Below are positions 45-64,000 of a DNA stretch of 64,000 bases, piece after piece. Position 1 is the first letter of the stretch. Each line of letters begins with the position of its first letter. A program made the translations under genes and the position numbers. Below the pieces are notes generated by a model that was not told the DNA's origin, made no database searches, and saw only the letters and a program-made list of their open reading frames with translations. Source of the DNA: Octopus vulgaris (taxonomy: Eukaryota); the NCBI GenBank assembly GCA_951406725.2, contig OX597831.1, positions 60,884,001-60,948,000 of the forward strand, read 5' to 3'.

Positions 45-299
45 TTATATGTATTTGTGAAGGGAACCAACTTCTCATCGACTACTATGATTGTCACACG
101 CCGATGACGGGTCAATACCCTGAAACTCGAGTCCGTGTGTATCATAAGTTGAAGACGGGAAGGATGGCTTTCCTTTGCGAATACTGATAGGGCACAGAAA
201 GTGTGTCTATAGCCAGATGGAGGAGGTGTCCTCCTGGGGCTACAAACTACAGTAGCATTCACCCTTAGGGGTTAGCCATATTCAAATGGCAAATATACG

Positions 300-12299: not shown

Positions 12300-12686
12300 T
12301 ACTTTTATTTTTTACATTGTTTCAGTCATGTGACTGTGGCCATGCTGGAGCACCGCCTTTAGTCGAGCAAATCACCCCTAGGACTTATTCTTTGTAAGCC
12401 TAGTACTTACTCTACCGGTCTCTTTTGCCGAACTGCTAAGTTACGGGGACGTAAACACACAGCATCGGTTGTCAACCGATGTTGGGGGGACAAACGCAGA
12501 CACACAGACATATACATACATACATATATATATATATACATATATACGACGGGCTTCTTTCAGTTTCTTTCTATCAAATCCTCTCACAAAGCTTTGGTCG
12601 GCCCGAGACTATAGTAGAAGACACTTGCCCAAGGTGCCACGCTGTGGGACTGAATCCGAACTTACAACACAGCCACTCCTACGCCT
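12300..12686 (-). mobile_element. SINE family A (tRNA head, CORE-like ccttgggcaagtg box, internal microsatellite)
   Basis: High similarity to the copies at 19.0, 24.4, 53.0 and 55.4 kb. Confidence 0.85.
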
Positions 12687-14825: not shown

Positions 14826-15422
14826 TGCAAGCTGCCGCCTTCGTTTGACACGAATATTATGATACTTATTCAAGCAATGTCATTTGAAAACGTGTGGCCC
14901 GTTATAATGTAAGAGTTTTATATCATTTTACGTAAAAACTACATTAATAGTTATAGATGATTTTCTTAAAGGAATTGCGATATTACTGTAACACGTAAAT
15001 AATTATTTATTCAGTGGGAAGTGAAGAAGGTGGAATGGATTCGAGGGATGTATCAGCTACAATAATGTACTGAATTTTTCCTCATTTCAATTTAAGCTTC
15101 CTTTGATCTTCTGTAGCAGGATTTTAAAGATGATAATATAAATAGCGGTAACATATTTAATTTTAGCTGTTTCATATAATATCTTCACATGATGTAGCTT
15201 TTAATCTCAAGGAATATTTAAAAAAATTCCAATCTGGGCTACGGATTTCAGAGTTGTTAAGACATTCGTGTTTGGAAAAATGCATTACTTAATTAAGATT
15301 CATGCCGGAACGAAATTTCTCTGAATTTCTTTCGAAGAAAACTTGTATTTACCACAGCCTTTGGTCATATTATAAATATGCTTTTTTAAAATATATACAT
15401 TATAGGCTTTGAAACTAAATGG

Positions 15423-15859
15423 GGATCTTTTCGGTTTGAACGGCAGTTTTTAACATAATTTCTAGGTAACTAAAACATTTTAAACTTCGTATACTAGTAG
15501 AATGTGTTTATAAAACATCTTTTTCTCTTGGTTTTATTGAGAGAATTCTATAATTTGTAAGATATTTGTTGTTTTTTTCTTCAATTTCTGCAATTTCAAC
15601 CAATCAGTGACGTCTATTGAGTTAAAATGCATTCTGTGCCGTATGAATATGTCCATCGTTTAAGAAACAGATTGGGTTTATTTACATTTGTGAAGAAAAA
15701 ACGATGCCCTTCCCCCACCCCTAACCCTAACTCTAACCCTAACTAACCCTAACCCTACAAGAGATTGAAATGCAATAGATAGATTCTAGGCTCATAATTA
15801 TGGGTGACAATTTTATATGACACCGCTAGAAAAAACTGCCGCTCAAACCGAAAAGATCC
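15423..15859 (-). mobile_element. Non-autonomous DNA transposon (Merlin-like MITE) with internal (CCCTAA)n
   Basis: ~29 bp TIRs ggatcttttcggtttgaacggcagttttt / aaaaactgccgctcaaaccgaaaagatcc; exact 8-bp TSD ctaaatgg; strand is relative to the 18 kb copy. Confidence 0.85.
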
Positions 15860-16935
15860 CTAAATGGAAATGTGAAAGGGAAATATTTTCAAACCAAATT
15901 CGATATCCAGACGCCAATGCCTATTACTAGCTACTTAGCTACTCCAAAAATACTGAGGCTGAACTTAATAACGAGGATAAATTATTTAGCCTCATTACCA
16001 TATAGTACTGACTTCGAAGATTTAGTTTCACCGAAGAATTCAAAGAGAGAATAAATTATCTGGGATATCAATTGCTCACATCCAACACACACGGATGTGA
16101 AATTGAGTCAGTACTGCAATGAATCAAAATACGTGAAATATAGTTTTCTACGCTAACAAGATCACGAGAAATTGGTGAATTGTATAGAATTATACATTAC
16201 ATTGTGCAAACTGATTAACGCAAGAGGAGAGTGGTTGTTAGGAGATAAGTTTCTTGGTGAGAGACCGAAAATTTTGGGCTATCATTAAGTAGACAAAACT
16301 AACAATATAATTTTCTTCGAGATCGTTGATTGACCAATTACTTCGAATTTTCTAAGAATAATTATTGAACATTAACATGGGACAGTATTGTCATGATCGT
16401 TTTATATGTATATTATCTGTATTAAATCTGATGGAAAACGAATTAAAAGTGAGATTTGTCTTCAGGTAAATTTCAGTTCTTCCCTTAGGACGCGTGTATT
16501 GAATCGAACAAAATTGGTTTCAATTATATCTCTAATTGATGTATTCCAGTTAGGAAAGTGTGCATGTTATTTACCATTAAATAATATGACGTACTTAATT
16601 GTTTTGCATTACGAGGAATGACATCTAAAATGATAAAATATACTAGGTAATCATAAGAAGTGTAGATATAATTAATCACATATGATGTAATTTAGCTACA
16701 ACGTATGCTGAGTTTTAAACCCATACATTTATTGAGAGAAATAAGATATATATGATAAATGCATCAAGAATATTTGTTGCTTTCGAAAAACGAGATTTTA
16801 AATTCGTGCCTTTTACAAAATGAAATCATTCAGTGAAGCTGAAAACAGCGAAGCAAAGAACACAAAGTATAATATATCTCAAACTGAAGAACTGTATTAA
16901 AAAAATAAAAATGCGTGTGGGATGAACACTTATAT

Positions 16936-17352
16936 ATTTCTTTACTACCCACAAGGGGCTAAACACAGAGGGGACAAACAAGGACAGCCAAACTGATTAA
17001 GTCGATTACATCTACCCCAGTGCGTAACTGGTATTTAATTTATCGACTCCGAAAGGATGAAAGGCAAAGTCGACCTCGGCGGAATTTGAACTCAGAACGT
17101 AATGACAGACAAAACACCTACTTCTTTACTACCCGCAAGGGGCTAAACACAGAGGGGACAAACAAGGACAGACAATGGGATTAAGTCGATTACATCGACC
17201 CCAGTGCGTACCTGGTACTTAATTTATCGACCCCGAAAGGATGAAAGGCAGAGTCGACCTCGGCTGAATTGGAACCCAGAACATAACGGCAGACGAAATA
17301 CGGCTACGCATTTCGCCCGGCATGCTAACGTTTCTGCCAGCTCGCCGCCTTT
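16936..17352 (-). mobile_element. SINE family B with tandem duplication of its 3' part
   Basis: tRNA-like head at the right end; cctttcatcctttcggggtcgataaattaagtacc central domain (MetaSINE-like); 18-bp TSD tgggatgaaca(c/t)ttatat. Confidence 0.88.
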
Positions 17353-18067
17353 TGGGATGAACATTTATATGTTCATCGACAACTAACATGTCAAATCAAT
17401 TGCGTGATGGCATCTCAGCGAGATAAAAAAAAACAATATGTATGTGTTTGTGAGAGTGAGGGAGAGAGGAAGAATTGAGAGAGATAATCTCGCATCGCCA
17501 AAAACATACGCATGCTCTTATGTACAAATGGCTAAATTATTGTGTTAATTTACGAGGGGCTGGATAATCCACTGACATATTTTCCTTGTCATAAATCTCA
17601 AGTAGAACCCGAATGGCACACCGTGATAATTCAGGGCTTTTGAAAATCCAAATTATTCTGAGTTTCACTGGAGAGTTTGGATTTCTGTGAACTCAGATTC
17701 TCTGATAAGTCGTGGGTCGACACGAGGATAATGTAAACTTGCTTGTAAACGATTATTATATTCGTATGTGTATATTCATATGTATACTTTAAGTGAGTAT
17801 ATATGTTTCTATTCATATGTATACATTAAATAGGTAGGGCCATAAAACTTATTCGGAGATATGTCGATATTGAATAGTTCAAGACGGGACCTGTCTCAAG
17901 CGATATGAAACTAGAATTATTTGACTTCTGGATGTTCTCTCAGTGGAGTATAAATATATAGGATTTGGTGAGTATATACACCAATCTCCATAAATATATG
18001 TCCACTGATTCCAGTATATACAAGGACGGTTAACACCAGAAAAAGTATTATCGAAAGTGTAAAATAT

Positions 18068-18519
18068 GGATCTTTTCGGTCTGAACGGCAGTTTTTCTAG
18101 CGATGTCATATGAAATTGTCATAATTATGACCCTAATATCGATCTATTGCATTTCAATCTGTTTTAGGGTTAGGGTTAGAGTTAGGGTTAGGGTTAGGAT
18201 TAGAGTTAGGGTTAGGGTTAGGGGTGGGGGAGGTTATGTTTTTTTCTTCAGAAATGTAAATAAACCCAATCTGCTTCTTAAACGAGAGACATATTCATAC
18301 GCCACAGAATGTTTTTTTATCTCAATGGACGTCAGTGATTAGTTGAAATTGCAGAAATTGAAGAAAAAAACAACAAATATCTTACAAACTATAGAATTTT
18401 CTCAATAAAGCCAAGAGAAAAAGATTTTTTATAAACACATTCTACCAGTATACGAAGTTTAAAAGTGTTTAGTTACGTGGAAATTATTTTAAAAACTGCC
18501 GGTCAAACCGAAAAGATCC
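18068..18519 (+). mobile_element. Merlin-like MITE with internal (TTAGGG)n
   Basis: Same TIRs as 15423-15859, inverted relative to it; 8-bp TSD taaaatat/tgaaatat. Confidence 0.85.
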
Positions 18520-19005
18520 TGAAATATTTTTATATAAGAAGGTTTAACAAATTGCGTGTTATTCCCATATGCTCTGTGTCGTTCATGTTGGCTGAAAGAT
18601 TAAAATGTTCGACTGAAAGAGGAAAAATGCCTTAAGTATTTATGGAGGCGTTATACAGACTGCTAATTAATCACGGAAGGTGAGAGTTGAAGGAAGTATT
18701 TTAAAATTGGTCGATTGTGAATACTTATTGAAATCAACAATAGGAAATGCTAATGCATAAACCTGTGCCAATAGGTGTACGCATGTGTTTGCAGGCTAAT
18801 GTGTGAGTGTAAATATTTCCGGTAGTAAACTTAAAAGAAGTTGTTTTTTACTTATGCAATGAACTTTAGTTATACATTTATGTAAGGTTGGCCTGTTTCT
18901 TTTTGTTTTTGTTTTACGTGTTTTTTAATTTTTATAAAAGAAAAATGCTAAGACTCATGACCTAGTTCAATAAATATATCATAAATTACTAGTGTAATTA
19001 CTATA

Positions 19006-19400
19006 GGCGTAGGAGTGGCTTTGTGGTAAGTAGCTTGCTTACGAACCACATGGTTCCGGGTTCAGTCCCACTGCGTGGCACCTTGGGCAGGTGTCTTCTA
19101 CTAAAGCCTCGGGCCGACCAAAGCCTTGTGAGTGGATTTGGTAGACGGAAACTGAAAGAAGCCCGTCGTATATATGTATATATACATATGTGTATATTTG
19201 TGTGTTGTGTTTGCCCCCCCCCCCAATATCGCTTGAAAACCGCTGCTGGTGTGTTTGCGTACCCGTAACTTAGCGGTTCGGCAAACGAGACCAAGAGAAT
19301 AAGTACTAGGCTTACAAAGAGTAAGTCCTGGGGTCGATTTCCTCGACTAAAGGCGGTGCTCCAGCATGGCCACAGTCAAATAACTGAAATATGTAAATGA
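19006..19400 (+). mobile_element. SINE family A, full length
   Basis: ggcgtaggagtggct...ggttcagtccc (B-box-like)...ccttgggcaggtg...ccagcatggccacagtcaaataactgaaa. Confidence 0.88.
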
Positions 19401-19597
19401 ATAGATGAGTGTCGTAATAGTGATTTCCTTCAAATCTATATCGTTGTACTACAAACTTTTTGCCTACACTCTGTGAATAAACAGATATGCTAATCGGCTA
19501 GAGAGTAGATCTTTCGCCCTGAGTAAGACATTTAAAGAACTGACAAAGAACATACATACATATATAGAAACAGACCGATACGCATGCATGCAGACAT

Positions 19598-21410: not shown

Positions 21411-24369
21411 ACCTATATAATTTCTTTCGTCTGTGAGTATATGTGCATTTGCGTTTAACTTTCGGTATGAGTGTGTTGAATGTTTTATGTTTGAGTATTC
21501 CTGTGAATGTTCTGCAAAGACCTATAAATCATAGTATATGTGGAATCGAAGTCTGCTCCCTGGACGTCGCTGTGAGTTGTTGTTCTAGGATCGTTGTATA
21601 CACAACTTAATTGTTGCTATCTTCATCTCTTTCTCTTCTCTCTCTCTCTCTCTCTGTCTATCTTTCTCTCTCCATGAAACTTCTCCCTTTCATTTTCTCT
21701 ACTTCACATAATAAGCGAACGTATGAAACAATTTAGCGAAGGAAAAACGATTTGTGGTTTAGTTTGACTGCAAAATAAAGAGACACATACACTAGTTTAT
21801 CACTAGTTTATCTTCAATTGAAGGGAAAATTAACAATAATATCATTATCAGAAACGTATCACCCAGAATGCTGTGTAAAATTTATAGGGAATATTTCTTC
21901 TAGTCAGGGCTAACTGTCTCTTTATTTTCTCAAACTTTGACTGCTGCGCTTAGCAACAGTCATCGATGTAAGAGAGGAATCGCCAGTATTAAAGAGAATA
22001 AGTGAAATAAAACTTTTATCAGCTTTATCTGTTGAAAGTATTTTTATATAAAATCACGAAATTATTTGGTAGACTGATGTCCGCTAGTTTATATAAAATT
22101 CGAAATGTTTCACATAGATCAACTTGATTAAATTGTTTCGTTTGAGCAGTTTCCACACAGTTAAACAGAGTCTATTAATATGTTTTAATAGCACATTACG
22201 TATTTTCCCTCAATAAACAATATATACCTTAGCACTTTAAACTCTCACTAATAAAAGTTCCTGGGTTTTCTTCCATGGTACACCTTACTCTTAGTAACCT
22301 ATTTTCAGCAGCTGGGTATCCCATAGGGGCATCTAAATTTCGCTTAACTGTTAGTAGACGATCAGAATCTGTGACACGTCTGGTGACTTGAATCATGGGT
22401 ACAGTGAATCCGAGAGGTGTGGCAAATTTTTCGTCTATAAAGTTTCGGTCAAAATATTTGGGACTATCTACGACTATTGTAAATTATTTAAGGTAACAGT
22501 TGTAGTAGAAGGCATATTGTTTCAGTTGGTAATTACGGATAAGATATCTCACCAAAATATCTTTGTGCTGTTTAGACTTCTTGTTCAATCAGCCTTAAAA
22601 GGATCAGATGCAACTAGAATATAACAAATATTATTACAAAACCAGCACGTGAATAATATTAATCTCACTGCAGCCAAAAGCACATAGAGACAAAATAACA
22701 TCTGGAGCATCAAACATCTCTCTGAGCATTTATCACTGCACGTGAATGCACACGAAACGCATTTTTGCTATCAACAAATAAGATTTGGATATGCATCTAC
22801 TTTTCCTGTTACGAATGTATACCTCTCAATGCCATACGTCAGCAGAATATAGAGGGGAGCTACAAGTGCGTTGTATAAGACTGCACCACGTATAATAAAC
22901 CTATGTATTATATTAAATTAAAAGCCATTTATGGAGTTCTTCCGTGGAGATGTTTCCAGTTTGCATCTCTAGTTTCTAATGCATATGAGATCAATTTTTC
23001 ACCATGATTATTGTTACGGAGACGATCTCTCACTAAGAAGTAATTTTTTCGATGTTTTCTTCCTTGCAACTCCTTTTTCATTATAATCCTGGCAGCTAAT
23101 ATTTATTCTCATTTCGCTAGTGTAAGCTTTATGCCATTCTACGACATTTTCTAAGTTGTCAAGGTAATAATGCTGAAAACGGGCAGTGACTTCTTGATGG
23201 TACAACGGAATTATTTCATAGCGGCTCACTTTGGGTAGCGACAGCTTGCGCGCTTAGTTCGCAAGTTCTGTTTCAATACATTCTTTCTTCTTTTAATGCT
23301 TTACCTTCAAAATACATGCTCCTTGACGATAGCCGCAATTTTCATGATTTTCATTCTTGCCAGTATTTCATTTTTTATACACAAACATCTCATTTGATGT
23401 TGAAAATCAATGTTGAAAATCAATTCTAATTATTGAAACTTCTCGCGTCAACAAATCCTGAGGTGGCACGATGGGCATTTCATTCAGTGACATTCTTTTT
23501 ATATGTGCGAAATATCGGAGTCAATTTTCTTCAATGACGGTTTCCAGTTTCCTAGTTTCGTTTTGTGTAATACAATAATTTATTTGTTGAAACAATTAAG
23601 ACCTGTACATTTTATGTTTTCTCACTGCCCAGATTAGCAACCAAAAAGATTTGTGTTGAAGAGCCATATGTTTTGAGATACTGGATTGGAAAGACCATTT
23701 CATGCAATCAGGAAAGCAAAGCGGGCGGATCATAGTCGACTGAAACCTTATCATCAAGCATTGAAAATTTGGATAACATACCGCGAAGACAATGGACAAT
23801 AAAATATCTTTGACTACTTTACTATGGACTGTAATTTGAACAAGTCTTTTTCTTCTAAAAGTGGATATTGGGTAAGCAATTTCGTGGTTACTAAATTGAC
23901 AATGAGATCAGAGACCGGTTTAACTTACACAATGTCTTTACGGAGGCCACAGCAATATAAAGTACGCCATAATTCACTGTTATTATACGGACATGGTGAA
24001 CCTTCTCCTGCATTTGAGATTTGTAGTTTTGTTAGATATTAATGCCTTAGCACAACAACAATTTTCAGTTTAAAATGTAACTAATACTAGTGAAAATCAT
24101 TCAGTAAAGTTTAGTATTGAATATTTGAAAGTTAGATACTATGCATTAGAAAACTTAATTGCTGAAATACCCCAATAGCAAATCTCTGCTAGAGCGGGAG
24201 ACACTCAGAAACACAAAAAGAAACACAAAAATACGAAAATAGGAATAAAAAGAATTATATGTTTTAAGAAGCACTATTAATGCATTAGACTGAGGGAATT
24301 GTGTAATAATTTTGTGTAGTACGTCAATACTACTAGAAATATTCAAACATATGTATATATATATGTGTA

Positions 24370-24790
24370 TATTCTTTTATTCCTTTACTTGTTTCCGTCA
24401 TTTGAATGTGGCCATGCTGGAGCACCGGGTTTAGTCGAACAAATCGACTTATTCTTTGCAAGTGTAGCGCATATTCTGTCGGTCTCTTTTTGTGAACCGC
24501 AAAATTAAGGGAAAGTAAACATACCAACACCAGTTGTCAAGTGATGATGAGAGGAGGTCAAACACAGACACACAAACACCTACAAACACACGCATACACA
24601 CGCACACACACATACTCACAAATATACGACGGGCTTCCTTCAGTTTCCTTCTACCAAATCCACTCGCAAGGCTTTGGGTCGGCCCGAGGCTACAGTAGAA
24701 GACATTTGCCGAAGGTGCCACGCAGTGGGACTGAACCCGGCACCATGTGGTTGGGAAGCAAGCTTCTTACCGCATAGCCATTCCTACGAC
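24370..24790 (-). mobile_element. SINE family A
   Basis: Similarity to 19006-19400 throughout. Confidence 0.85.
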
Positions 24791-27332
24791 TATATATGTA
24801 TGTATTACAACGCTTGCTTTTTAATTGTATTTATCTTGTTTCCAATCTTGAATCTATCGTCCAGTTTTGTATTGTATCATTCTTTGTCTGGTTGCTAACA
24901 TTTCCTTCACTGTTTGAACTTTGTTAAATATGAAGAAAAGCTTTATTATATAAAATTATTGCGGAAGCGTATAACGTCAATAGGATATAAAAGGTAACGA
25001 GGAACAGAAATGTCTTGCTTCCTTACAAACGTACAAATAAGATGAAACTCTTTCTTTCACAAAAATATTCCTCGTGTTCACACAGAAATCGAAATTGTGA
25101 ATGAATGTCAGAATCAGTGATAGACTCATATTTATTACTATTTACATTTTCAGTTGGAAACGATATATATTCTTGAATTTTTGAAGCGTGGAATATGATG
25201 AATATCAGGACCACTAGTTATGTTTTCAACCTTTGGAACATCAACAATTAGAGCAATCATGATAAATCTGGACAAAATGTAAGCTTCTGTGGTGATTACA
25301 TTATTGTTATATGCAGAAGTAACACATTCAATGAACAATTATTTTTTTTAGAAAATGGAAAATATGCTTGCCGTTTTGATAGACAACGAAACACAATGCA
25401 GTATGTCATTAAAGCAACTTAACGAAACGAGAATAAGCAAACAACCTGTTCATACCTGTACGAGAAGGGACGAGAATTAATTCAGACAAAATTACAGTTA
25501 GGATAATTATAATTTTGATAACTCGATTTGAGAGATCGAAAGGGTGCAATAAGTCCCTGATAAAGCTCTAAATGCGGACGCCCATAAAGTCAGCGAATTT
25601 CCCAAGATTGTTAAGAATAGCATTGAGCTCAGTAATTATTCTTCTCAGGTTTTATTCGATGTCCGTAAGAGAAGGGAAATCCTCACTTTCATGAAAAAAG
25701 GCACTTCTTGGTTATAGGCAGCAAACGACAATTTAACACAACTAATTGAGGTATTTATTTCCACACTCCAAGTTTTTGCATTTGCTTATTCATTATTCTG
25801 ATAAACGACAAACAACGAAAGATGTTTCCAGCTGGAGAAGCGATCATATAAAATCTTCTTGGTTAGGCGATTTCCTATGTTCATTATTGTTAATTTCTTA
25901 TTATGTGTCCGTTGAAAGTGTTTCAAATATGTTATGTAAATATTCAGGAAATTTAAGATCCCGGTTTTAAAAGTAATAGGCAACATTAACGTGTATGCTA
26001 TAAACCAAATGGTTAGGGAATAGATAATTAGATTGGCAAAAGTATCTTACGAGGTTTGGCAATATGTATTAAATCCTTAATTGCACTTTTAATTACATCG
26101 ATTTAAACACCATACAGACAATTTTGTCACCAAATGCTATTTCTAAACTTTATCTGCAGATAACTGGTGTAATTTACAAAATTCCAATACAAAATAAAAC
26201 TAAAATGTCTAAGTTTCATTGTTATGTCATATTTTATATACTTCTTATCCGACCATCTTCCACATATTTCTTTTTATTTATTACATATATCATAACAGGA
26301 AATATATATATATATCATAGCAGGAAATATATCATAACAGGACATATCGAATTAAATATGATGCCGAGCGTCAATAACCACATCTTCTGATTGAGCATTC
26401 CAACAACTTTCTCTATATCCTGTCTTGGAATACATCCCCTCTTGGTCTAATGTATGGATCCTATACAATGACAAAATCCCGTCGACAGAACATTTTTCAA
26501 TGTGTCAGCGAAATGCACAGATAAATTCCGCTTTTGTTTGAAAATAATATAACTAACGGATTCGATGTTATAAGATAAATACAAGAACAAACAAGGGAAT
26601 AACATTTTGTCGAGACTAAGTAAGTAGTTTTCGCTGTAACTGTATTAGAATTAATCGTTTCATTATTATTATACTAATAATATATTTCCTTGGTGTTTGT
26701 TGACATTCCTGATCAATTCCGTCAATAAGTGTCATTCTTTCGTAAACGAATGATGAATGAATTTCTGAAAATAATGCAGTAACTTTCATAATCTTAAAGA
26801 CTTTTGTGTAATTTCGTTGTTTGCTTTCAGAGGTTGAGCTAGAATCTACTTTCAGGGTCCATCTCTGTGTTGTCTTCAACTACTTTAATATTGCTACACC
26901 TGGGTGAAGCTTCTTATATAAATAATAAACAGCACTAGCTTGGAAGGTTATTGGTAGCTGATAGGACAATCACGGACATATTTCTGTCGTTTATAAATTT
27001 CAATACATTGTCATCTTCAAGAAGGAAGATTTCTTTTCTTTTTCCATCACTTTATTTATATATTCATTCATTCATTCATTTATTTGGTTTTACTCTTAGA
27101 TACACCATTTTTCTTGAGCTCTCCCCCCTCCACATTAGTATGTTACAACCATTCGTAAGAAAGAATATCGTAGTTTCTCTTTTACCATGTTGAACATCCC
27201 ATTTTACTGCTTCGAGCTACAGAATGTTGCATATGTGTAGCAGTCACCATGTTGATGTCAAGCATATAACTAAATAAAATTTAATGATACCTTGGACGTA
27301 TAGCTTTTTATAGATAACTGAAAAGGTGACAC

Positions 27333-27833: not shown

Positions 27834-27839
<6 letters not shown>

Positions 27840-27999
27840 AAGGAGTTCTACAGGACTAGAACTGTTTCATTCAAATGAAGATTTCATTTGAATGAAACAG
27901 TTCTATCCTGTAGAACTCCTTCTATAAAATAAATTAATTTACCCTGCTATGTATTGAGTACCTTAATTACTGTGGTTAACCCCGACTCAACCCGGGACC

Positions 28000-28002
<3 letters not shown>
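27834..28002. mobile_element. (TA)n-flanked fold-back element (PLE pLTR-like)
   Basis: 46/45-bp inverted arms 27834-27879 / 27883-27927 with a 3-nt loop and one bulge; tgaaga...gaaacagttc hammerhead-like remnant. Confidence 0.7.
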
Positions 28003-28084: not shown

Positions 28085-28245
28085 GCACTGGCGTGGCTAT
28101 GTGGTAAGCGGCTTGCATCTTAACTACATGACTGTGAGTTCAGTACCTCTCCGTTGAAGCTTGTCAAGTGTCTTCTACTATAGTTTCGGGCCGACCTAGT
28201 AAGTCGATTTGGTAGACAGAATCTTAAAGAAGCTTGTCGTATATA
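28082..28245 (+). mobile_element. Partial SINE family A
   Basis: gtggctatgtggtaag...aagtgtcttctactatag...gatttggtagacagaa. Confidence 0.7.
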
Positions 28246-30999: not shown

Positions 31000-31956
31000 A
31001 TGAACAATGGAGATTGCTACAATTGGCCTAGACACCTACCTGAAAAAACTCTGAGGACTGGATGCTAAAACTTGTCTCAAAACATGAAAACAAGAAAGCA
31101 TCATACTCAGTCACAAAACAGGCAAAGGAATATCTAAGTGAATTCCGAATACAACCAATTTCGGAATTAGCGATAGACATACAAGAAACAAGCACAGAAA
31201 AAGCTAGGCGCATGAAAACCCGTGCCAAAACCGCGGCCTTAGATATTCTGAATAATAAATGGCAAGAAAAACCTCTCTATGGCAAATACCCAAAGAGAGC
31301 GAATAATGCAGATATTGACAAAGCCCTGACCCATCAATGGCTAATGGCCTCTGGCTTAAAATCTGAGACAGAGGAGTTTATCATAGCAGCTCAAGATCAA
31401 TGCCTACCAACAAGAAACTACCAGGCCAACATATTAAAGAACGGCAGTAGCCCAACATGTGTGTATGCCGACAACAAAATGAAACCATTGATCATGTTGT
31501 CTCCAAATGCAGTCTTCTAGCGCCTACAGAGTACCTCAGTAGGCATGATAGAGCTGCACAATATATTCACTGGGTAATTTGCTAAAACCTTGATTTGCCC
31601 CATGAAAAACACTGGTGGGAACACAATCTCTGATCACGAGCAGAAGTAGTGGGGGAGCATCATAGCCATGTGTTGAGAGGGATTCTTTGGGCGTTTCATT
31701 CAACATCCTGAAATAACCCGTATTCAAGGACCTTTTGAGCAGGATGGGTTACTCGACCAGAAGAAAATTCTAAGTGGGCCCCTCCAGCAAGGTCATGTGC
31801 TGTTTATCCTGATATGAGATCACCATGTCGCGCACACATGGTTGTGATGCATGTGCCTAGTGTACCCTTATCAGACGGGTAGTCATGATGGGTATACTGG
31901 GCTTTGTATATTTTTACCCCAGTGTTACTTTGGTGCCATGCACTGCTCTCTCACGC

Positions 31957-35025: not shown

Positions 35026-35231
35026 TGATGCTGCTGCTGTCGTCGTCGTCGACGGTGCTGTTGCTGAAGGCGGGGCTGTTGGCGTTGGTGCTGGCAAATG
35101 TGGGGGTGGGGTTGGTATTGGTAATACTATCACCGTTACCGGTTAAGAAAGTGCTGTTACTGCTGCCAGAAGTGTAATTGGTCGAGCTTCTGCTTCTGCT
35201 GGGTCGTTTCTGCTGTTGTTGCAACAATACC

Positions 35232-35602
35232 TATTTCTTTACTACCCACAAGGAGCTAAACACAGAGAGGACAAACAAGGACAGACAAACGGAGTAAGTC
35301 GATTATATAGACCCCAGTACGTAAGTGGTACTTATTTAATCGACCCCGAAAGAATGAAAGGCAAAGTCGACCTCGGCGGAATTTGTACTCAGAACGTAGC
35401 GGCAGACGAAATATCTATTTCTTTACTACCCACAGTTGATTATATCGGCCCCAGTGCGTAACTGATGCTTAATTTATCGACCCCGAAAGGATGAAAGGCA
35501 AAGTCGACCTCGGCGGAATTTGATCTCAGAACATAACGGCAGACGAAATACCGCTAAGCATTTCGCCCGGCGTGCTGACGTTTCTGTCAGCTCGCCGCCT
35601 TA
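35232..35602 (-). mobile_element. SINE family B with partial tandem duplication
   Basis: Exact 18-bp TSD tgttgttgcaacaatacc (35214-35231 / 35603-35620). Confidence 0.9.
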
Positions 35603-35994
35603 TGTTGTTGCAACAATACCAGCAACAACAACATCAGTGATAACATCGACAGCAATTGTAACAACATGAAAAGGTACTTTACCGGAAACACACGTAGGGG
35701 TGGTAACATTACTGAGGCAGTCACCCCCTCCAGCGGTACCATCACCAACACCAGCAATTCCGGCAACAACAGGATTATCAGTAGCATCATCAGCATCATC
35801 AACATCAACAGCATCAAGAGCGGAGGCAACATCATCGATGACACCAACGACGCCAACAACATCAACAGAAGCAGCAACAACATCGGCAGCAAAGACATGG
35901 GCAGCTACAACTACATCAACAGCTGTAGCAGCAACAACAGCAGCAACAGTAGCAACCACAACAATAATATGTACAGCAACGACATCGCACGTCC

Positions 35995-36540: not shown

Positions 36541-37460
36541 ATATATATATATGTACACGCATTATATACACAAACACACCTATGAAGCAGACATACAACA
36601 TATCACATTTACCTATTTTACCGTAGATTGAAAACAACGATGAAAATCCTCATTCAATTTTTTTACCTTTATTACGGTTTCATCAAGCGTGTTTACATCT
36701 CTTAAACAATCATTGAGAAACAAGGAGCCCATTAGTTTACAAGCCCAAGTTTAGTAGTTCCAGGGAACTTAACTGACTAATTTGCGCTCTATAGAAGCGT
36801 AACCCTTTATTTATTAAAAGAGGTCTGTCAACGGTTAAAGTTGTCGTATAGTATCAAAGTTGTATGTTAGGAATATACACACGTAGTAAACATACAAACA
36901 TTTCGAATTTAAATATTGAGTAATAGATTTTTAAAACATGATCAACAGCGTTAGTCGATTTATGATCCTTGACGGGATCTCTGCATAGCTGTCTACATCA
37001 CTTGACTAATTCCAGATTAACAATTAGCCAATCAGTTTTATACATATCAATTGTAGTAGCTCCAGTTAACTAGCACGACTAATTTCCATACCAAAATCGG
37101 TTGACAATATATTTCATACTAAAGTTTCCCGAGTCTTTCATTTTAAATTATTCACATCAATGAGGAATCTAATCCGCACAAAATCGAGGTAAGATAGCTG
37201 TAATTCTACATTGTAGACATGTAGACATGTAAGAACAATTATATATATATAACAATAATCAAGGGTTTAGCAACAAGTTGCTTCACACATACCGAAAATT
37301 TAGAAATGGCAGCCAAAAGACCGCTATTTCTATTTCCTACAAAACATGTCTCCACAGATAACAATATTTGTAACTCACATAGGTAAAGTGAAGAAAAATA
37401 ATAGAATCAGCCTTCGATTAATTATGGACGCGTTTCTGGATTAGAATTATGAATTCACTC

Positions 37461-37530
<70 letters not shown>

Positions 37531-37537
<7 letters not shown>

Positions 37538-37839
37538 TATTGGTGAATTGAAGAAATGGAGCTGAACGCAGATTGAACAGAAATCGTTTTATTTCATTCT
37601 ACACGTGTTTCGAAAGGCACAATTTACCAAAATCCGATTGAATAATGGGACCAGCGTTCAGCTCCATTTCTTCAATTCACCAATAATATTTTAACTTCAA
37701 TTATCCGCACCAACGCACGGTTGCAACACCATATGGTTGTACCTCCAACCGTGCTGTTTACTGCTGTGATTTTTGCTACCAAGGTATCGGTTAAACTTTT
37801 GATTAATCTACTACAAGATTATTCATCTTTCTATTTCAC

Positions 37840-37842
<3 letters not shown>
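37531..37842. mobile_element. (TA)n-flanked fold-back element with hammerhead 3' half
   Basis: Perfect 39-bp inverted arms 37531-37569 / 37654-37692; minus strand gaaa-cacgtg-ta (37600-37611) followed by aataaa. Confidence 0.7.
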
Positions 37843-41268: not shown

Positions 41269-41820
41269 TCACTTATATGAACTAAATGTGTGTTTCTGCC
41301 AAAGTTTACATCCGTATGCACGCTCTATAACCGTGTTTACAAGAGGATGTTTAGAAAAAAGAATAAAAAATAGTTCAGAATTACAGAGAAGACAGAATTC
41401 TTTGCCTTTATCATAAGGTATCGAGATTGAGAGACTCAACCAATTTAAATTAAATTGTTTATTGTTGTCTTTTAGATCCCAAATTAATTTCCTAAGCCCT
41501 GTACCGTTACATTTATTCCTATCCCTAAATGTAGAGTAATGATTAGAAATTATTTCAGATAACTGTGAAGATGTGCTTCTAATATAAAAATATACTTGAT
41601 TACGAGTAGTAATTTTACACTGGTTTATAGAATTTTTAATTTTAGAGTTACTTGACATAAACTTGATTCTGTTGTAATTGACTTCAGATACAATAACCTT
41701 ATTATTATTAATATTTCTAGTGGGAATTGAGTAACAAATCTGTGATAATTTTGAAATTTCAATAAAAAGGCATATTACTTTACTTTTGGTATTCGAAATA
41801 TAACTTTTTAAACCTGGTTT
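41269..41820 (-). pseudogene. Penelope-like GIY-YIG endonuclease fragment
   Basis: YIRST..NHYSTF..TGLRKLIWDLKD..W..PY..FCLLCNSE, same architecture as the 36 kb fragment. Confidence 0.75.
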
Positions 41821-41940
41821 GCACTTATGTGTTCACCTCTGTGCGTGTGCGTATGTGCGTGTATATGTGTGTATATATATATACAGGGAGAGAGAGAGAG
41901 AGAGATGTGTATATACGTGTGTGTGTGGTGTCATAATATA

Positions 41941-42171
41941 TATTTCTTTACTACCCACAAGGAGCTAAACACAGAGGGGACAAACAAGGACAAATAAAGG
42001 GATTAAGTCGATTATATCGAACAAGTGCATAACTGGTACTTAATTTATCGACCACGAAAGGATGAAAGGCAATGTCAACCTCGGCGAAATTTGAACTCAG
42101 AACGTAACGACAGACAAATACCGCTAAGCATTTCGCCCGTGGCGCTAACGTTTCAGCCAGCTCGGCGCCTT
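41941..42171 (-). mobile_element. SINE family B, monomeric full length
   Basis: TSD gtgtcataa(t/c)ata; matches the 16.9 and 35.2 kb copies. Confidence 0.88.
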
Positions 42172-42482
42172 GTGTCATAACATAGGGATGCCTAAATGTT
42201 GTATGATATCGTCTTTGGTTTAAATATACGTCAACGATGTTTACTTGTTTGATATTCGCATCAACTATCACATTCGAATCGAAAATGTTGCATAACATTA
42301 TGACACCTTTCTTAAGGCAATATTTTGCGTTTCGACAACGATAGAACTATTATATTTGTGTAGTATATATCATATTTGTGTAGGTAACATTCAGATATGT
42401 TTTTAATATAACGTGCATGTTCCTGCTCAACAAAATGAAAGGCCCTTTCTGTAAATCTAAGTAGTAAAATTATTGAATATAG

Positions 42483-46188: not shown

Positions 46189-46429
46189 GAGTGTGTATAT
46201 TTGTATGTATATTCGTGTGTATGTATGCATGGGAGTGAGAGATCCGCCTATGCTTCTTTACACATCTTCCTAGCAGAAAGAAATTCCGTAATCTTGGTAT
46301 TGCAAGTTTCTTGAATACTTGGTTTTGTTGGCGTGAGTCTGAGAAGTGTTGTCAAGTTGACAAGTTGTTACAGACTAGAAACATCAGCTCTAGCATTGCT
46401 GAAAGATATTTTGCCATAAATTGATCACA

Positions 46430-47438
46430 ATATATTTCAACAATGCGGAAAATTTATTCATCAAAGCAAGTATCATTGCCATCGACACAATTTTTACCAA
46501 CGAGTTACAAGTTTGTTTATTCCGGTAATATATAAAATCTGGAGTTCTGGAGCTGATGAACTCTTTGAATGTACTTTCAGCATCAGCTTGATGCTTAAAT
46601 TCCTTCTCTCGCAGGAAACCATCAAGTTTCTTGAAAAAGTGGTAGTCGGTAGAAGAAATGTCTGGAGAATAATCTGGGGTGGAAAAACTTGGTAGCCAAA
46701 ATTCCTCAACTTCTATTGACCAGTCCGTGTCGGAGGAGTGGCGGTTTTTCGTTGATTTTGACAAATTCATAGCAATATGTTTCTGCAGTAATTGTTTTTC
46801 CGGGTTTTAAGAAATTATAGTGAATGAGTCCAACAGTACACAACGAAGCAATCACTATAACCTTCTTTTTGAAGAGCTCGGGTTTAGGGAAAGTTTTCGG
46901 TACTTCATTTTGCACCAACCACTGTGAAGAACGTTTGTTTTTATTACTGTACAGAATCCGTTTTTCATAGCAAGTTACAATACGGTCGAGAAATGGGTCC
47001 GTTCTGGTTAAGGGGAAAGAGCGACAAGCAAACTTAATATCTGCGCATTTTCTGATTTTCATTTAAATAGTGTGGTATCAATTCGTCGAGCCTTTTTTAT
47101 TTTACAAGGACATGCAAATGGTTGCAGGCAGTTTTCTGACTAACTCGATGTTCTTTTGCCAGTTCTCGAGTGGTTTATGTGGATCTCTGTCAATGACGTT
47201 CTTTAATTGACTGCCATCGACGACTGATGGGCATCCACTACGCTCACGATCTTCAAAAACTCAGGTCTCCATGCGAATTCGTTTAAACCATTTTCGAGCT
47301 GACCACTCACTGATCATTTCCTCACCAAACGTTTTGTTCATATCGCAAGCAGTTTCAGTTGCTTTACGTCCTTTTATGAAGTAGACAGCAAAATTGCTCG
47401 AATATTGACCTTCGGCAGTCCAGATGATTGTAACAACG
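46430..47438 (-). pseudogene. Mariner (Tc1/mariner, D,D34D-type) transposase relic
   Basis: KGRKATETA..TFGE HTH, FLDRIVTCYEK, GLIHYNFLKPGKTITAETY, YSPDISSTDYHFF. Confidence 0.9.
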
Positions 47439-50586: not shown

Positions 50587-50625
<39 letters not shown>

Positions 50626-50626
50626 T

Positions 50627-51028
50627 CAAAATAAAAACATGATGCCAAGGATTCAGCGGTACATATGTTTCGGGCCTTTATTAGACAGATTTATAACAAT
50701 GCATAATGTATGTCTGTGGCCCTCTACAGCCGCGCACAACAGAAGATGGACGCTTCAATTCTATGCTGTTGCCGCATTATGTCGTACGCGAATGAGAGGA
50801 TTTGCATCCCCAACCAAGAATTTTTGATGTAACACAAGTCCTTGTGGAAGCTGTTGTGGCGGCTGAAGAAGGCCACAGACATACATTACATTGTTATAAA
50901 TCTGTCTTAAGGCCCGAAACATATGTATGAATGGCATATTTATTTTATCAATTTACTCCACCATACACCACCAAACGGTATACACAGGTACTTATAATTA
51001 TCAAGTACTCACCCCGAATTTCTGTACT

Positions 51029-51032
<4 letters not shown>
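50627..51032. mobile_element. (TA)n-flanked fold-back element with a hammerhead in each arm
   Basis: Inverted arms ~50627-50742 / ~50850-50948, each with gcgg-ctg(a/t)aga-(a/g)ggcc...ggccc-gaaa-catatg-ta. Confidence 0.8.
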
Positions 51033-52518: not shown

Positions 52519-52979
52519 TAGAAAATGTATATTTATGCATCTAATGTGTGCATATGTATGTATATATATATATATACATACATACATACATACATACATA
52601 CATACATACATAAATACATACATACATACACACATCCACACAAGGAGTACATACATACGTATTTTGAGCTCTGTATTTGTTTTGCGATATCTTGATGTGA
52701 ACTCTGTCAAAACAGACATGGTTGCAGCTCACGAAGATCTACATACAAATACTAAAAACTGGCTGTGGTCTTGTTCACTACTTTTATTATTAGTTAAATT
52801 GTTAAATAACTATTTAACTTATTAAGTAATCGATTGCTTGATTAATCGTTCACTTAACTAATCAGTCAAGTTTGTCGATATACTGGTCGCTATCCACTTC
52901 ATCAACGACATCTCTTTCCTGCTGCAAGTATATTTCATATCTGTCGGTCCACACAGCAGTTTATTGGTTTTGTATATTA

Positions 52980-53199
52980 CTCTTTTACTCTTTTACTTGT
53001 TTCAGTCATTTGTCTGCGGCCATGCTGGAGCACCGCCTTTTAGTCGAACGAATCGACCCCAGGACTTATTCTTTGTAAGCCTAGTACTTATTATATCAGT
53101 CTCTTTTGCTGAACCGCTAAGTTACGGGGACGTAAAAAGAAACCGTCGGTTGTCAAGCAATGGTGGGGGGACAAACACAGACACACAGACATATACACT

Positions 53200-53258
<59 letters not shown>

Positions 53259-53420
53259 GACGGGCTTCTTCCAGTTTCCGTCTACCAAATCCACTCACAA
53301 GGCTTTGGTCGGCCCGAGGCTATAGTAGAAGACACTTGCCCAAGATGCCACGCAGTGGGAATGAACCCGGAACCATGTGGTTGGTAAGCAAGCTACTTAC
53401 CACACAGCCACTCCAGCGCC
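52980..53420 (-). mobile_element. SINE family A, full length
   Basis: Similarity to 19006-19400. Confidence 0.88.
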
Positions 53421-53424
53421 TATA

Positions 53425-53505
<81 letters not shown>

Positions 53506-61007: not shown

Positions 61008-61865
61008 TCGCAGTTATCATAAGTATTCAAGGGCAATAATTTCTGTATAGATTTAATAATACATACTTTAGTTTTCGTAAAATATTGATCTGTATATCAA
61101 TTAGTTCGATGCATGCTCTCCATTTCTAGTTGTGGTTTGTTAATATTGAAACGTAACTCTTAACGAATAGATTAAAGCGGGTGTACGTTTTAGTCTCTTT
61201 GACTTTACTTAATCCATGCTTTTGTAAATTTAATATGCGACGCACAGTGTAAGTTTGGTTTAGTTGACTTCTACATAAATGATGGTTCCGAATTCCAAGA
61301 GTCATTTCCCTGGCAAGCACCCATGCTTCTAAATGAACATATGATCTTGGATTTCTAGACAACAGCGGGATATGATATAGTTTATATCAATTGTACAGCT
61401 ATAACTTGATTTAAGACTGTACTTTTATGTTTCAATACTTGTAATTGGTGATTTAATACACAGTGAAATGGCTATGTAAGTTATATGATAGTTTGCAATC
61501 CCTACTTGGTTTCGAGGGATAGAAGTTAGAAAGTAGATTGTCGTTGATTTCGCTGCTTCTAAGTCATTAATATTGTAAGGGATTGATTTATGAAGGATTG
61601 TTTAATTCAGGACACATTCTATATACTTATGTTTTATAGGTATACATACACACACATATACACATATATATATACTCTATAAACACACACACACATATAT
61701 ATATACAATATAAATATATATATAAATATATATAGAAAATAGTAAAAAGTGAAAAAACTACAGAAGGCTTGTTTTAAAAGTTTAAAAAATATATATTTGA
61801 GTCAATATGTCTGAAGAATGTTATAATTTTTTTTTTCTTTTTTTTCATACAATGACATAGTTTAG

Positions 61866-61905
61866 AAGAAATGACCGGTTTCGCGTTCAGCTTTTCAAAT
61901 TTCTT
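61866..61905 (-). ncRNA. Minimal hammerhead ribozyme, U3-A8 core variant, in a PLE 3' pLTR
   Basis: aagaaat-ttgaaaa-gc/tgaac/gc-gaaa-ccgg-tc-atttctt: 7-bp stem I, palindromic stem III, GUC site, ~100 nt downstream of the GIY-YIG ORF stop. Confidence 0.8.
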
Positions 61906-62007
61906 ACATCGTTATGTTTACGTTAAGAAGTGTGAAGGAGAGTGAAAGAGAGTTCCAGATAAGGGAATGTAATAAGTGATATCTTCCGGTGTAAGGGAGA
62001 TAATCGC

Positions 62008-62775
62008 TTAATATTTCTTGCTTTTCTTTTGGAGTGAGTTTCTCTGTATAAGAATGTTGGAATGGTTAAGTTTGGGCTTGTATTTTTCAATGAAGAATGT
62101 TTCCTTGTTTAGTCTAATTTGTGTTGGTGTTCCGATAGCACATTGGTAGAATGGAAAGATTAAAAATTGTGGTAGTAGTTGCTTTGCGCATTTCTCAATG
62201 TGCTCACTAAAGAGTATCATTCTGGGTTCTGGGAATGCAATATGTTGTCGATGCAGTGTGCATCTACGTCTGAGTGATAGTCCCGTGGATCCCACGTAGT
62301 CTTGGTGGCAGCCCGAGCATTTTATGACATAAATTATGTTTTCAGAAGCACAAGTAAAATTAGATTTGATCTTGAATTTATGTCCTTCTTTGAAGAGGAA
62401 TTCTGATCCTTCTAGCAGGTTTGGACATGTTGTACAGTTCGGTCTACCACATTTTTTTACTTTTGCATCCGTAATTTCAGAAAACAATTTTGCCTTTGTG
62501 AGAATCTTTTTATGTGATTTAGGTTGTTTGTAGCTTTTAATGATTTGGTGTATGTTTAGAATTTCCTTTAATTTGGGGTCCTTATGAAGTATTGGTAAAT
62601 TCTGGGTGATGATGGTGAAGGCTTTGTTTCTGGGGTTGTATGTGGATATGTAAAGTAGTATTTTCGGGGAAGGTGTATTGTTGTGTTGAACTTTTCTTAA
62701 AGTTTCTATGTTGATTTCTGTTGCACGTCTGATCCCATCCTCTATGAGTTGAGCTGGGTAATGTCTGTCACTTAG
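62008..62775 (-). mobile_element. 5'-truncated Penelope-like (Neptune-type) ORF: RT thumb end, Cys-rich linker and GIY-YIG endonuclease
   Basis: Uninterrupted frame: RHYP..LI, CGRPNCTTC, FTCASENIIYVIKCSGCHQDYVGST..RCTLH..EH..R..KE..I..PKLN. Confidence 0.9.
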
Positions 62776-62878
62776 GGTAAACACATAAATGTGAAACAAG
62801 GTGGAAAAAAGAGTACTCAAATACCAGTCGTAGAGTAATATGCTTTATTTAAAGCAGCAGAAAATTCAACAAATAAAG

Positions 62879-62910
<32 letters not shown>

Positions 62911-62973
62911 AAATATAAATATATATATAGAAATATAAATATAAATATAAATATATTTATATATACAATATTG

Positions 62974-63004
<31 letters not shown>

Positions 63005-63682: not shown

Positions 63683-64000
63683 GGGTCTTTCCGGTTTGAA
63701 CAGCAGTTTTTTCTAGCGCTGTCATATGAAATGGTCGCCCATAATTATGACCCTAGTATCGATCTATTGCATTTCAATCTATTTTAGGGTTAGGGTTAGG
63801 CAGAAGGGTATCTTTTTTCTTCACAAATTTAAATGAACAAAATCTGTTTCTTAAACGAGGGACACATTCATACAGTACAGAATGTTTTCACCTCCATAGA
63901 CGTCAGTGCTTGGTTGAAATTGCAGAAATTGAAGAAAAAAAACAACAAATATCTTACAAACTATAGAATTTTCTCAATAAAGCCAAGAGAAAAAGATGTT
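63683..64000 (+). mobile_element. Third Merlin-like MITE with (TTAGGG)3, cut by the window edge
   Basis: Colinear with 18068-18430. Confidence 0.85.

Follow-up and report, generated by a model that had tools for sequence, protein, structure and literature searches.

Does the hammerhead motif in a microsatellite-rich stretch of DNA belong to a protein-coding Penelope-like element (PLE), and is the copy that carries it young? This question was raised by a sequence-only reading of the window, that is, the whole 64-kb stretch (64,000 nt) analysed here, which is AT-rich eukaryotic DNA, rich in microsatellites and repeats and looking like that of a cephalopod. We are confident in reading the locus as a whole as a 5'-truncated Neptune-type PLE lying in (TA)n, likely inactive, with a minimal hammerhead at its 3' end whose 3-8 pair is U3-A8 and which is predicted to cut only as a pair of copies. 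The order of the parts, the protein family, the truncation point, the motif and the derived substitutions are direct observations.

The composite insert and its coding fragment

In the sequence, the composite insert occupies 1.14 kb (61735-62878) and is bordered by (TA)n on either side. Its parts follow one another on the minus strand, from the island (62878-62776) and the PLE coding region (62778-62008) to the UTR, the hammerhead, the tail and (TA)n (Table 1). The sequence-only reading had let (TA)n come after the hammerhead; it is present, but it begins ~130 nt past the ribozyme, the element ending at 61735, and on the side of the island, too, (TA)n is present from 62879 on. The microsatellite at 61640..61734 is likely the target site. 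No recognisable ORF start was found by three-frame translation of the tail after the ribozyme, and the tail may be the remainder of a 3' pseudo-LTR. The insertion context fits the (TA)n bias of Neptune elements on both flanks, in a single copy (n=1). No target-site duplication could be called within the degenerate (TA)n flanks, and no second copy of the ORF or of the 3' region occurs in the 64-kb window, as expected for a 5'-truncated copy.

Table 1. Coordinates of the composite insert, of the island paralogue and of the dispersed repeats in the window
Feature	Position	Strand	Basis or remark
(TA)n/(CA)n microsatellite, 3' end of element	61640..61734	.	sequence
A/T-rich tail, 3' of ribozyme, ~130 nt	61735..61865	-	three-frame translation
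Type I minimal hammerhead, 40 nt	61866..61905	-	motif scans
3' UTR, 102 nt, pyrimidine-rich, stop codon to ribozyme	61906..62007	-	
9 codons and stop past the end of the closest relative	62008..62037	-	alignment with P0009
Linker zinc finger and GIY-YIG endonuclease	62038..62451	-	alignment, fold search
GIY-YIG landmarks NIIY; CSGC; YVG; LRRR	62340; 62319; 62298; 62274	-	
GIY-YIG landmarks His (two regions); NKET; KLN	62256 and 62205; 62109; 62073	-	
RT C-terminal (thumb/HTH) region and linker	62452..62778	-	alignment with relatives
103-bp island	62776..62878	-	paralogue match, shuffles
(TA)n microsatellite, 5' side of composite insert	62879..62995	.	sequence
Island paralogue, 73%	41757..41837	+	head-to-head with decayed GIY-YIG-like remnant
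Decayed GIY-YIG-like frame	41272 to ~41650	-	embedding search
Dispersed repeat family	12302-12658, 19002-19410, 24366-24805, 52978-53435, others		
Dispersed repeat family	16931-17364, 35219-35605, 41935-42183		
Dispersed repeat family	15417-15865, 18062-18525, 63683-64000		

A single stop-free frame runs from 62844 to 62008 on the minus strand (278 aa from stop to stop). Its 278 codons consist of 22 from the island, 247 aligned with P0009, the closest relative (92% identical), and 9 past the end of P0009. The ~255 uninterrupted codons reported previously are thus the 247 homologous codons plus these 9, that is, 256 open codons on the PLE side, which encode the RT C-terminal linker and the GIY-YIG endonuclease. 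The PLE homology begins at the Thr codon 62778-62776 and continues for 247 codons to the end of P0009. Because P0009 extends ~79 aa further upstream into the RT, the copy is 5'-truncated at 62778. Directly after the last residue of P0009 there is a Ser codon (62035-62037), one base from a stop. The 9 codons before the stop (62008..62037) are possibly read-through of a lost stop into the UTR; alternatively, P0009 may be cut by the end of its contig and not by its own stop.

Four relatives, P0009 included, were identified among 214 candidates of similar length. Among 569 candidates, a search for longer relatives identified eight proteins, all with PF26215, five with RT and four with GIY-YIG. The best of them, P0001, is 70% identical and 659 aa long, with RVT_1 and, at its C-terminus, GIY-YIG. 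At E<=0.001, the exhaustive protein search returned 3842 relatives, and the named homologues are oyster proteins only, at 38% identity. The PLE layout, RT followed by GIY-YIG, is therefore found in the homologues, while the RT core itself is missing from the truncated copy. Together with the continuation of the 92% relative into the RT, these RT and GIY-YIG homologues uphold the proposal that the locus is the 3' end of a Penelope-like element and contains a GIY-YIG ORF.

From 161 proteins, the 115 aligned over at least 200 aa were combined with the window protein into 116 rows. The linker motif CX2-5CxxC is present in 114 of the 116 sequences and the CCHH motif in 110, the window protein being included both times. 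The window linker is CX4CxxC, and its spacer from CxxC to the next Cys measures 24 aa, compared with 23-29 in the 102/116 sequences matching the pattern. In the nuclease, the order NIIY...CSGC...YVG...H...H is present and the catalytic and zinc-binding residues are all kept. Sections 3 and 11 of PMC8557442 define the PLE clades by the CCHH endonuclease and the linker. By eye, the Neptune rows in Fig. S2 of that paper have a long spacer like that of the window, unlike the short one of the Nematis rows, and the RT motifs of P0001 resemble two Neptune rows in its Fig. S1. These motifs suggest that the element is a Neptune-type PLE. The Naiad and Chlamys clades are excluded, the endonuclease being C-terminal, not N-terminal, in every RT-bearing homologue. 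The Hydra clade, in which CCHH is absent and the linker is CxCX5C, is excluded by the presence of CCHH and by the CX4CxxC linker.

The AlphaFold model of the window protein has a mean pLDDT of 63.8 (~80 over the nuclease), and its best fold matches in the PDB are GIY-YIG domains, namely I-TevI (E 1.9e-3, TMt 0.75), EndoII and UvrC, none of them at E<=0.001. A sequence search of the PDB with the window protein gave no match, and Pfam GIY-YIG stays below the cut-off on the window copy (E 0.024). A Pfam SIR2 match at the cut-off (E 4.9e-5) was rejected, since it covers the linker zinc finger and is weak or absent in full-length relatives, and GIY-YIG nucleases top the fold search. Stray copies were also sought in prokaryotic genome contigs, where 76 pattern matches came up, 0 of them confirmed.

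The 5' island and its junction

The ORF had been described as fused at its 5' end to an unrelated island. The island is indeed unrelated to the 3' region of its own element, with no significant similarity in either orientation (821/1000 and 87/1000 shuffles), but it is a repeated sequence. It matches 41757-41837 (+) with 73% identity (E 3e-6; 0/1000 shuffles as good), and a weak similarity to 27835-28002 was also found (3/1000 shuffles, one of 60 tests, uncorrected). The island and the 41.8-kb paralogue end within a few nt of the same position; this shared end faces the ORF at 62.8 kb and lies a few nt before the microsatellite at 41.8 kb. Since both paralogues share a fixed end, the island is likely a 103-nt stub, the 3' terminus of another PLE family, placed in tandem with the PLE fragment, with its orientation and origin deduced from one paralogue. 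Judged by the embedding search, the remnant at 41272-41845, whose decayed minus-strand frame is open for 187 codons, resembles a different PLE GIY-YIG type (score 0.95-0.96 for 41.3-41.8 kb, with GIY-YIG on 18% of the members of one cluster). For the same remnant, sequence search retrieved 0 of 565 candidates, and there was no match among the 161 proteins and no Pfam match.

How did the two parts come together? The last 3 nt of the island overlap the first homologous PLE codon, which is possibly microhomology, and there are no TA repeats between the island and the ORF. The RT-endonuclease of the family would have nicked (TA)n, and reverse transcription would have proceeded from the tail end at 61735 through the ribozyme, the UTR and the endonuclease until it stopped at 62778, where a short terminus from another PLE family would have been joined on at its end by ~3 nt of microhomology. 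We tentatively favour the sequence of events in which this foreign terminus already lay in the same microsatellite (sequential insertion).

A single event is possible too, if somewhat doubtful: after 1.04 kb of its own RNA, the RT may have switched to an RNA from another PLE family at that RNA's 3' end, copied 103 nt of it and ended in the same (TA)n. Such a template jump is suggested by the join free of TA repeats, the 3-nt overlap, the same inferred sense of both parts and the one (TA)n tract that flanks the composite, and template jumps have been proposed for Adineta Penelopes in the available part of PMC3846280. However, the same text notes microhomology at the 5' joins of plain insertions, PLEs tend to insert into or beside existing PLEs according to the available part of PMC6765202, and both families prefer the same microsatellite. 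Sequential insertion and the template jump fit the present data equally. A bolder combination, namely a single-step cross-family chimera from a family that runs on a reduced hammerhead (40 nt, U3-A8, 2-bp helix II, no A9 bulge) working only as a protein-assisted dimer, we consider unlikely; if it were true, the locus would show that PLEs can jump between templates of different families, and its ribozyme would mark how small a natural hammerhead can be.

We regard it as decidedly unlikely that the island represents an inverted piece, in plus-strand sense, or part of the same family's 5' region, as in the inverted pseudo-LTRs of PLEs. Inverted 5' pieces are common in PLEs (legend of Fig. 2, PMC8557442), and the 41.8-kb paralogue lies head-to-head with an endonuclease remnant, but the shuffles given above show no significant similarity to the element's own 3' region, and the end shared by the paralogues faces the ORF in one case and the microsatellite in the other. 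A 3' terminus of another PLE family thus stays our preferred origin for the island.

Decay of the copy and the hammerhead motif

The window protein and P0009 differ at 20 positions in 248 columns. When the differences were polarised by the majority of six outgroups (a few calls resting on one or two of them), 11 proved to be window-derived, 4 P0009-derived and 5 unpolarised. The window-derived changes include a one-codon deletion near 62625, Leu to His at 62514 (Leu in 105/115 homologues and His in 0/115) and Tyr to Pro, a residue seen in 0/114 homologues. In a tree of 34 unlabelled rows (35 were chosen, and P0012 was left out because it is too short), the window groups with P0009 as its sister (100/89). 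The terminal branches measure 0.059 for the window and 0.015 for P0009, ~4x longer in the window.

Because 11 of the 20 differences, the codon deletion included, are derived in the window copy, the comparison implies that the copy has decayed by ~2-3% since insertion, presumably by neutral change. Simulated neutral substitution yields a mean of 11 changes at 2% decay and 16.5 at 3%. In these simulations, with substitutions only, the probability that no stop arises is 0.55 at 2%, 0.42 at 3%, 0.22 at 5% and 0.06 at 10%. The open frame is therefore weak evidence of youth, since it would often survive decay of several percent. The decay is nevertheless mild, with the catalytic and zinc-binding residues intact and a deviation at 4 of the 41 columns conserved in at least 80% of sequences, compared with 3 in five of six relatives and 1 in the sixth. 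These results suggest that the insertion is decaying and that its family moved fairly recently, and the copy is likely inactive. The earlier impression of a young, recently active element is thus borne out in part: it suits the family, which is fairly recent, better than the copy, given the derived changes (11 vs 4) and the branch lengths.

Could the family instead be active at present and the insertion brand-new, its differences from P0009 being divergence between species or subfamilies under selection? The open frame, the full set of catalytic residues and a count of conserved-column deviations only one higher than in most relatives would agree with this, but the asymmetry of the derived changes, the codon deletion and the residues found in 0/115 and 0/114 homologues make it very unlikely.

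The 40-nt hammerhead with a U3-A8 pair reported on the same strand is confirmed at 61905-61866. It has a helix I of 7 bp, a helix II of 2 bp with a 5-nt loop, and GAAA, and its core reads U3 U4 G5 A6 A7 A8 A9 (U3 at 61898, A8 at 61893). The G10.1-C11.1 pair is at 61891/61883 and C17 at 61873, with cleavage predicted 3' of C17. The motif thus possesses the Watson-Crick 3-8 pair, G10.1-C11.1, A15.1-U16.1 and H17 of the hammerhead core. Helix III is palindromic (a 6-bp palindrome), which allows dimer pairing. The extra nucleotide between A9 and G10.1 that is usual in PLE minimal hammerheads is absent from the window motif, so one base may have been lost from the A-run of the core.

The strict scan of the 64-kb window found two motifs, of which the other, at 37101, is poor. 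Dinucleotide shuffling of the 275-nt 3' region produced a match in 0/5000 cases (helix I>=5, II>=2, III>=1) and in 8/5000 at looser settings. When the whole window was shuffled (n=30), the mean was 0.07 against 1 observed, and 0.67 against 1 at the loosest setting. Rfam had 0 gathering-level matches in the window; at E<=10 within 61700-63000 it gave no hammerhead family and chance-level matches to others only.

The hammerhead was also called intact, which is true of its core letters. The monomer, however, is not predicted to fold (z +0.75; 149/200 shuffles fold as well), and the lone motif has no second ribozyme in cis. For two copies, the minimum-energy fold is exactly the double hammerhead, at -13.3 kcal/mol, and it is kept with 10 and 20 nt of flank, another fold winning at 131 nt of context. 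The dimer is weak, with a pair probability of 0.38-0.48 in helix III and ~4% of the bound ensemble in the exact fold. On this folding model, the ribozyme is predicted to cut as a pair of copies and not as a monomer, and the lone copy would cleave poorly because it has no partner in cis. By analogy with the findings in PMC4209133 and PMC11167929, as far as their available parts go, even a true minimal PLE hammerhead would probably fail to cut if assayed as a monomer. Members of the family that are full-length or in tandem would have the ribozymes of two pseudo-LTRs, which would pair via the palindromic helix III and cut 3' of C17, possibly with the PLE protein assisting the pairing.

Judging from the DNA of one copy, the U3-A8 pair is probably an inherited trait of the family rather than a product of decay, because the two specific, independent transitions that it would need have a probability of ~2e-4 at ~2.5% decay (hand calculation). 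That the U3-A8 pair and the 2-bp helix II arose without selection after insertion, by a C-to-T change and the loss or change of G8 in a canonical PLE hammerhead, is the least probable of the alternatives: the copy is decaying, its core is one nt shorter than the published 8-nt consensus, the A-run would hide a 1-nt deletion and the cores of other window islands are degenerate, but helices I and III show no imperfection, PLEs commonly have U3-A8 families (~1,300 S. mansoni matches in the available part of PMC4209133), and two such changes are hardly to be expected at the estimated decay.

Other islands in the window and comparison with known systems

Several other (TA)n-flanked islands are found in the window. 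The relaxed hammerhead scan of the 64-kb window gave 4 matches, 3 of them listed, among which the second good motif is at 95-139 (+). It is a type I hammerhead with C for U at position 4 and a G+C-rich helix I of 6 bp, in an island at 43-303, between (TA)n tracts, that probably represents the 3' end of a different PLE family. Remnants that consist of GAAA plus a palindrome were found at 28176, 37600, 50660 and 50915; the first falls within a dispersed repeat that is common, and it may be due to chance. The island at 37532-37842, which is (TA)n-flanked, contains a long inverted repeat and a hammerhead remnant at 37600-37612 (-). A 10-mer that it has in common with our ribozyme, in the helix II region, was discarded as not significant against shuffles. 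The (TA)n-flanked island at 50623-51032 contains two inverted, degenerate hammerhead-like halves, at 50660-50672 (-) and 50915-50927 (+), a layout typical of inverted PLE pseudo-LTR stubs. Internal inverted repeats are also present in the (TA)n-flanked islands at 1491-1642, which shows the start of a canonical 7-nt hammerhead core, and at 27835-28002.

These ribozyme islands had been thought to be tied to the PLE studied here. The comparison of 10 islands, on both strands, with its ribozyme region and tail gave no significant alignment and so no support for the tie, which is one of analogy only. The other hammerhead-like islands are probably termini of other PLE families.

Other repeats in the window include several multi-copy families of SINE- or MITE-like dispersed repeats with 70-90% identity (Table 1). 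Two further frames lack a Pfam match: one at 31044-31520 (+), of 158 codons, which resembles the remnant of a non-LTR retrotransposon C-terminus, and one at 46390-46806 (-), of 138 codons, which resembles a remnant of a mariner-type transposase.

The headline features of the locus, that is, a PLE with a 3' hammerhead, the U3-A8 pair, a 2-bp helix II, 5' truncation and (TA)n targeting, are already in print. A novelty of U3-A8 is not supported, and the link between hammerhead and PLE, on which the sequence-only reading set its value, is already established, because U3-A8 and PLE hammerheads are reported in the available parts of PMC4209133 and PMC3088659. In the literature searched, which was mostly openly accessible, we found no description of the studied family or of cross-family chimeras, and we make no claim that such descriptions are absent. 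The locus gives access to a Neptune-type family that is fairly recent and has unnamed near relatives in the protein database. It also supplies a compact construct for asking if minimal U3-A8 hammerheads rich in A and U cut as dimers or depend on the PLE protein, and it bears on the joining of termini from different families by PLE RTs.

Among the known systems, non-LTR retrozymes, described in the available part of bioRxiv 10.64898/2026.07.22.740005 as non-coding tandem repeats that each have a type I hammerhead, were rejected, since the window has a single motif behind a protein-coding fragment. In the Anolis Poseidon element PAc, as far as reported in the available part of PMC11167929, the 3-8 pair is functional, single mutants being dead and the double mutant partly rescued, and the targets are AT-rich. 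PAc differs in that it belongs to a different clade, its cleavage needs the PLE protein and its ORF starts inside the ribozyme, whereas the window has no recognisable ORF start after the ribozyme.

Section 8 of PMC3088659 describes a natural covariation from C3-G8 to U3-A8, stated to be active in vitro, and according to the available text of that paper stem II often has just 2 bp and a weak stem III is common. Such hammerheads are like that of the window in their U3-A8 pair and short stems; in that text they are not tied to a Neptune element.

A further counterpart is the Cercyon element of Schistosoma mansoni. The available part of PMC4209133 reports U3-A8 in the PLE hammerheads of this species, with about 1,300 matches, and in its supplement a full-length Cercyon element has a U3-A8 example at each end, and many PLEs that are 5'-truncated have a 3' hammerhead alone. 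The same source describes PLE minimal hammerheads as inactive in monomeric form and weakly active as dimers. The consensus core there has 8 nt and that of the window is one nucleotide shorter, although the extra nucleotide between A9 and G10.1 is missing from 2 published rows of its Fig. S3 as well. Cercyon (Fig. 2A, Fig. S3 and Table S1 of PMC4209133) shares with the window the type I minimal form, the U3-A8 pair followed by an A-run and the position of the hammerhead, which lies 3'-terminally in a PLE that codes for protein; the hammerhead labelled S. mansoni (4) flanks a full-length element. It differs from the window motif in helix II (6 bp vs 2 bp in the window) and helix I (3 bp vs 7 bp), and in the window motif the extra nucleotide after A9 is absent and the palindromic helix III is longer.

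The C-terminal EN+ PLEs of the Neptune clade described in the available part of PMC8557442 share with the window the order of RT and a CX2-5CxxC linker with a long spacer, the GIY-YIG endonuclease with CCHH, the 3' hammerhead, the (TA)n target and 5' truncation. Compared with them, the window copy keeps only the last 247 homologous codons, without the RT core and the upstream pseudo-LTR, and has a foreign terminus at its 5' junction.
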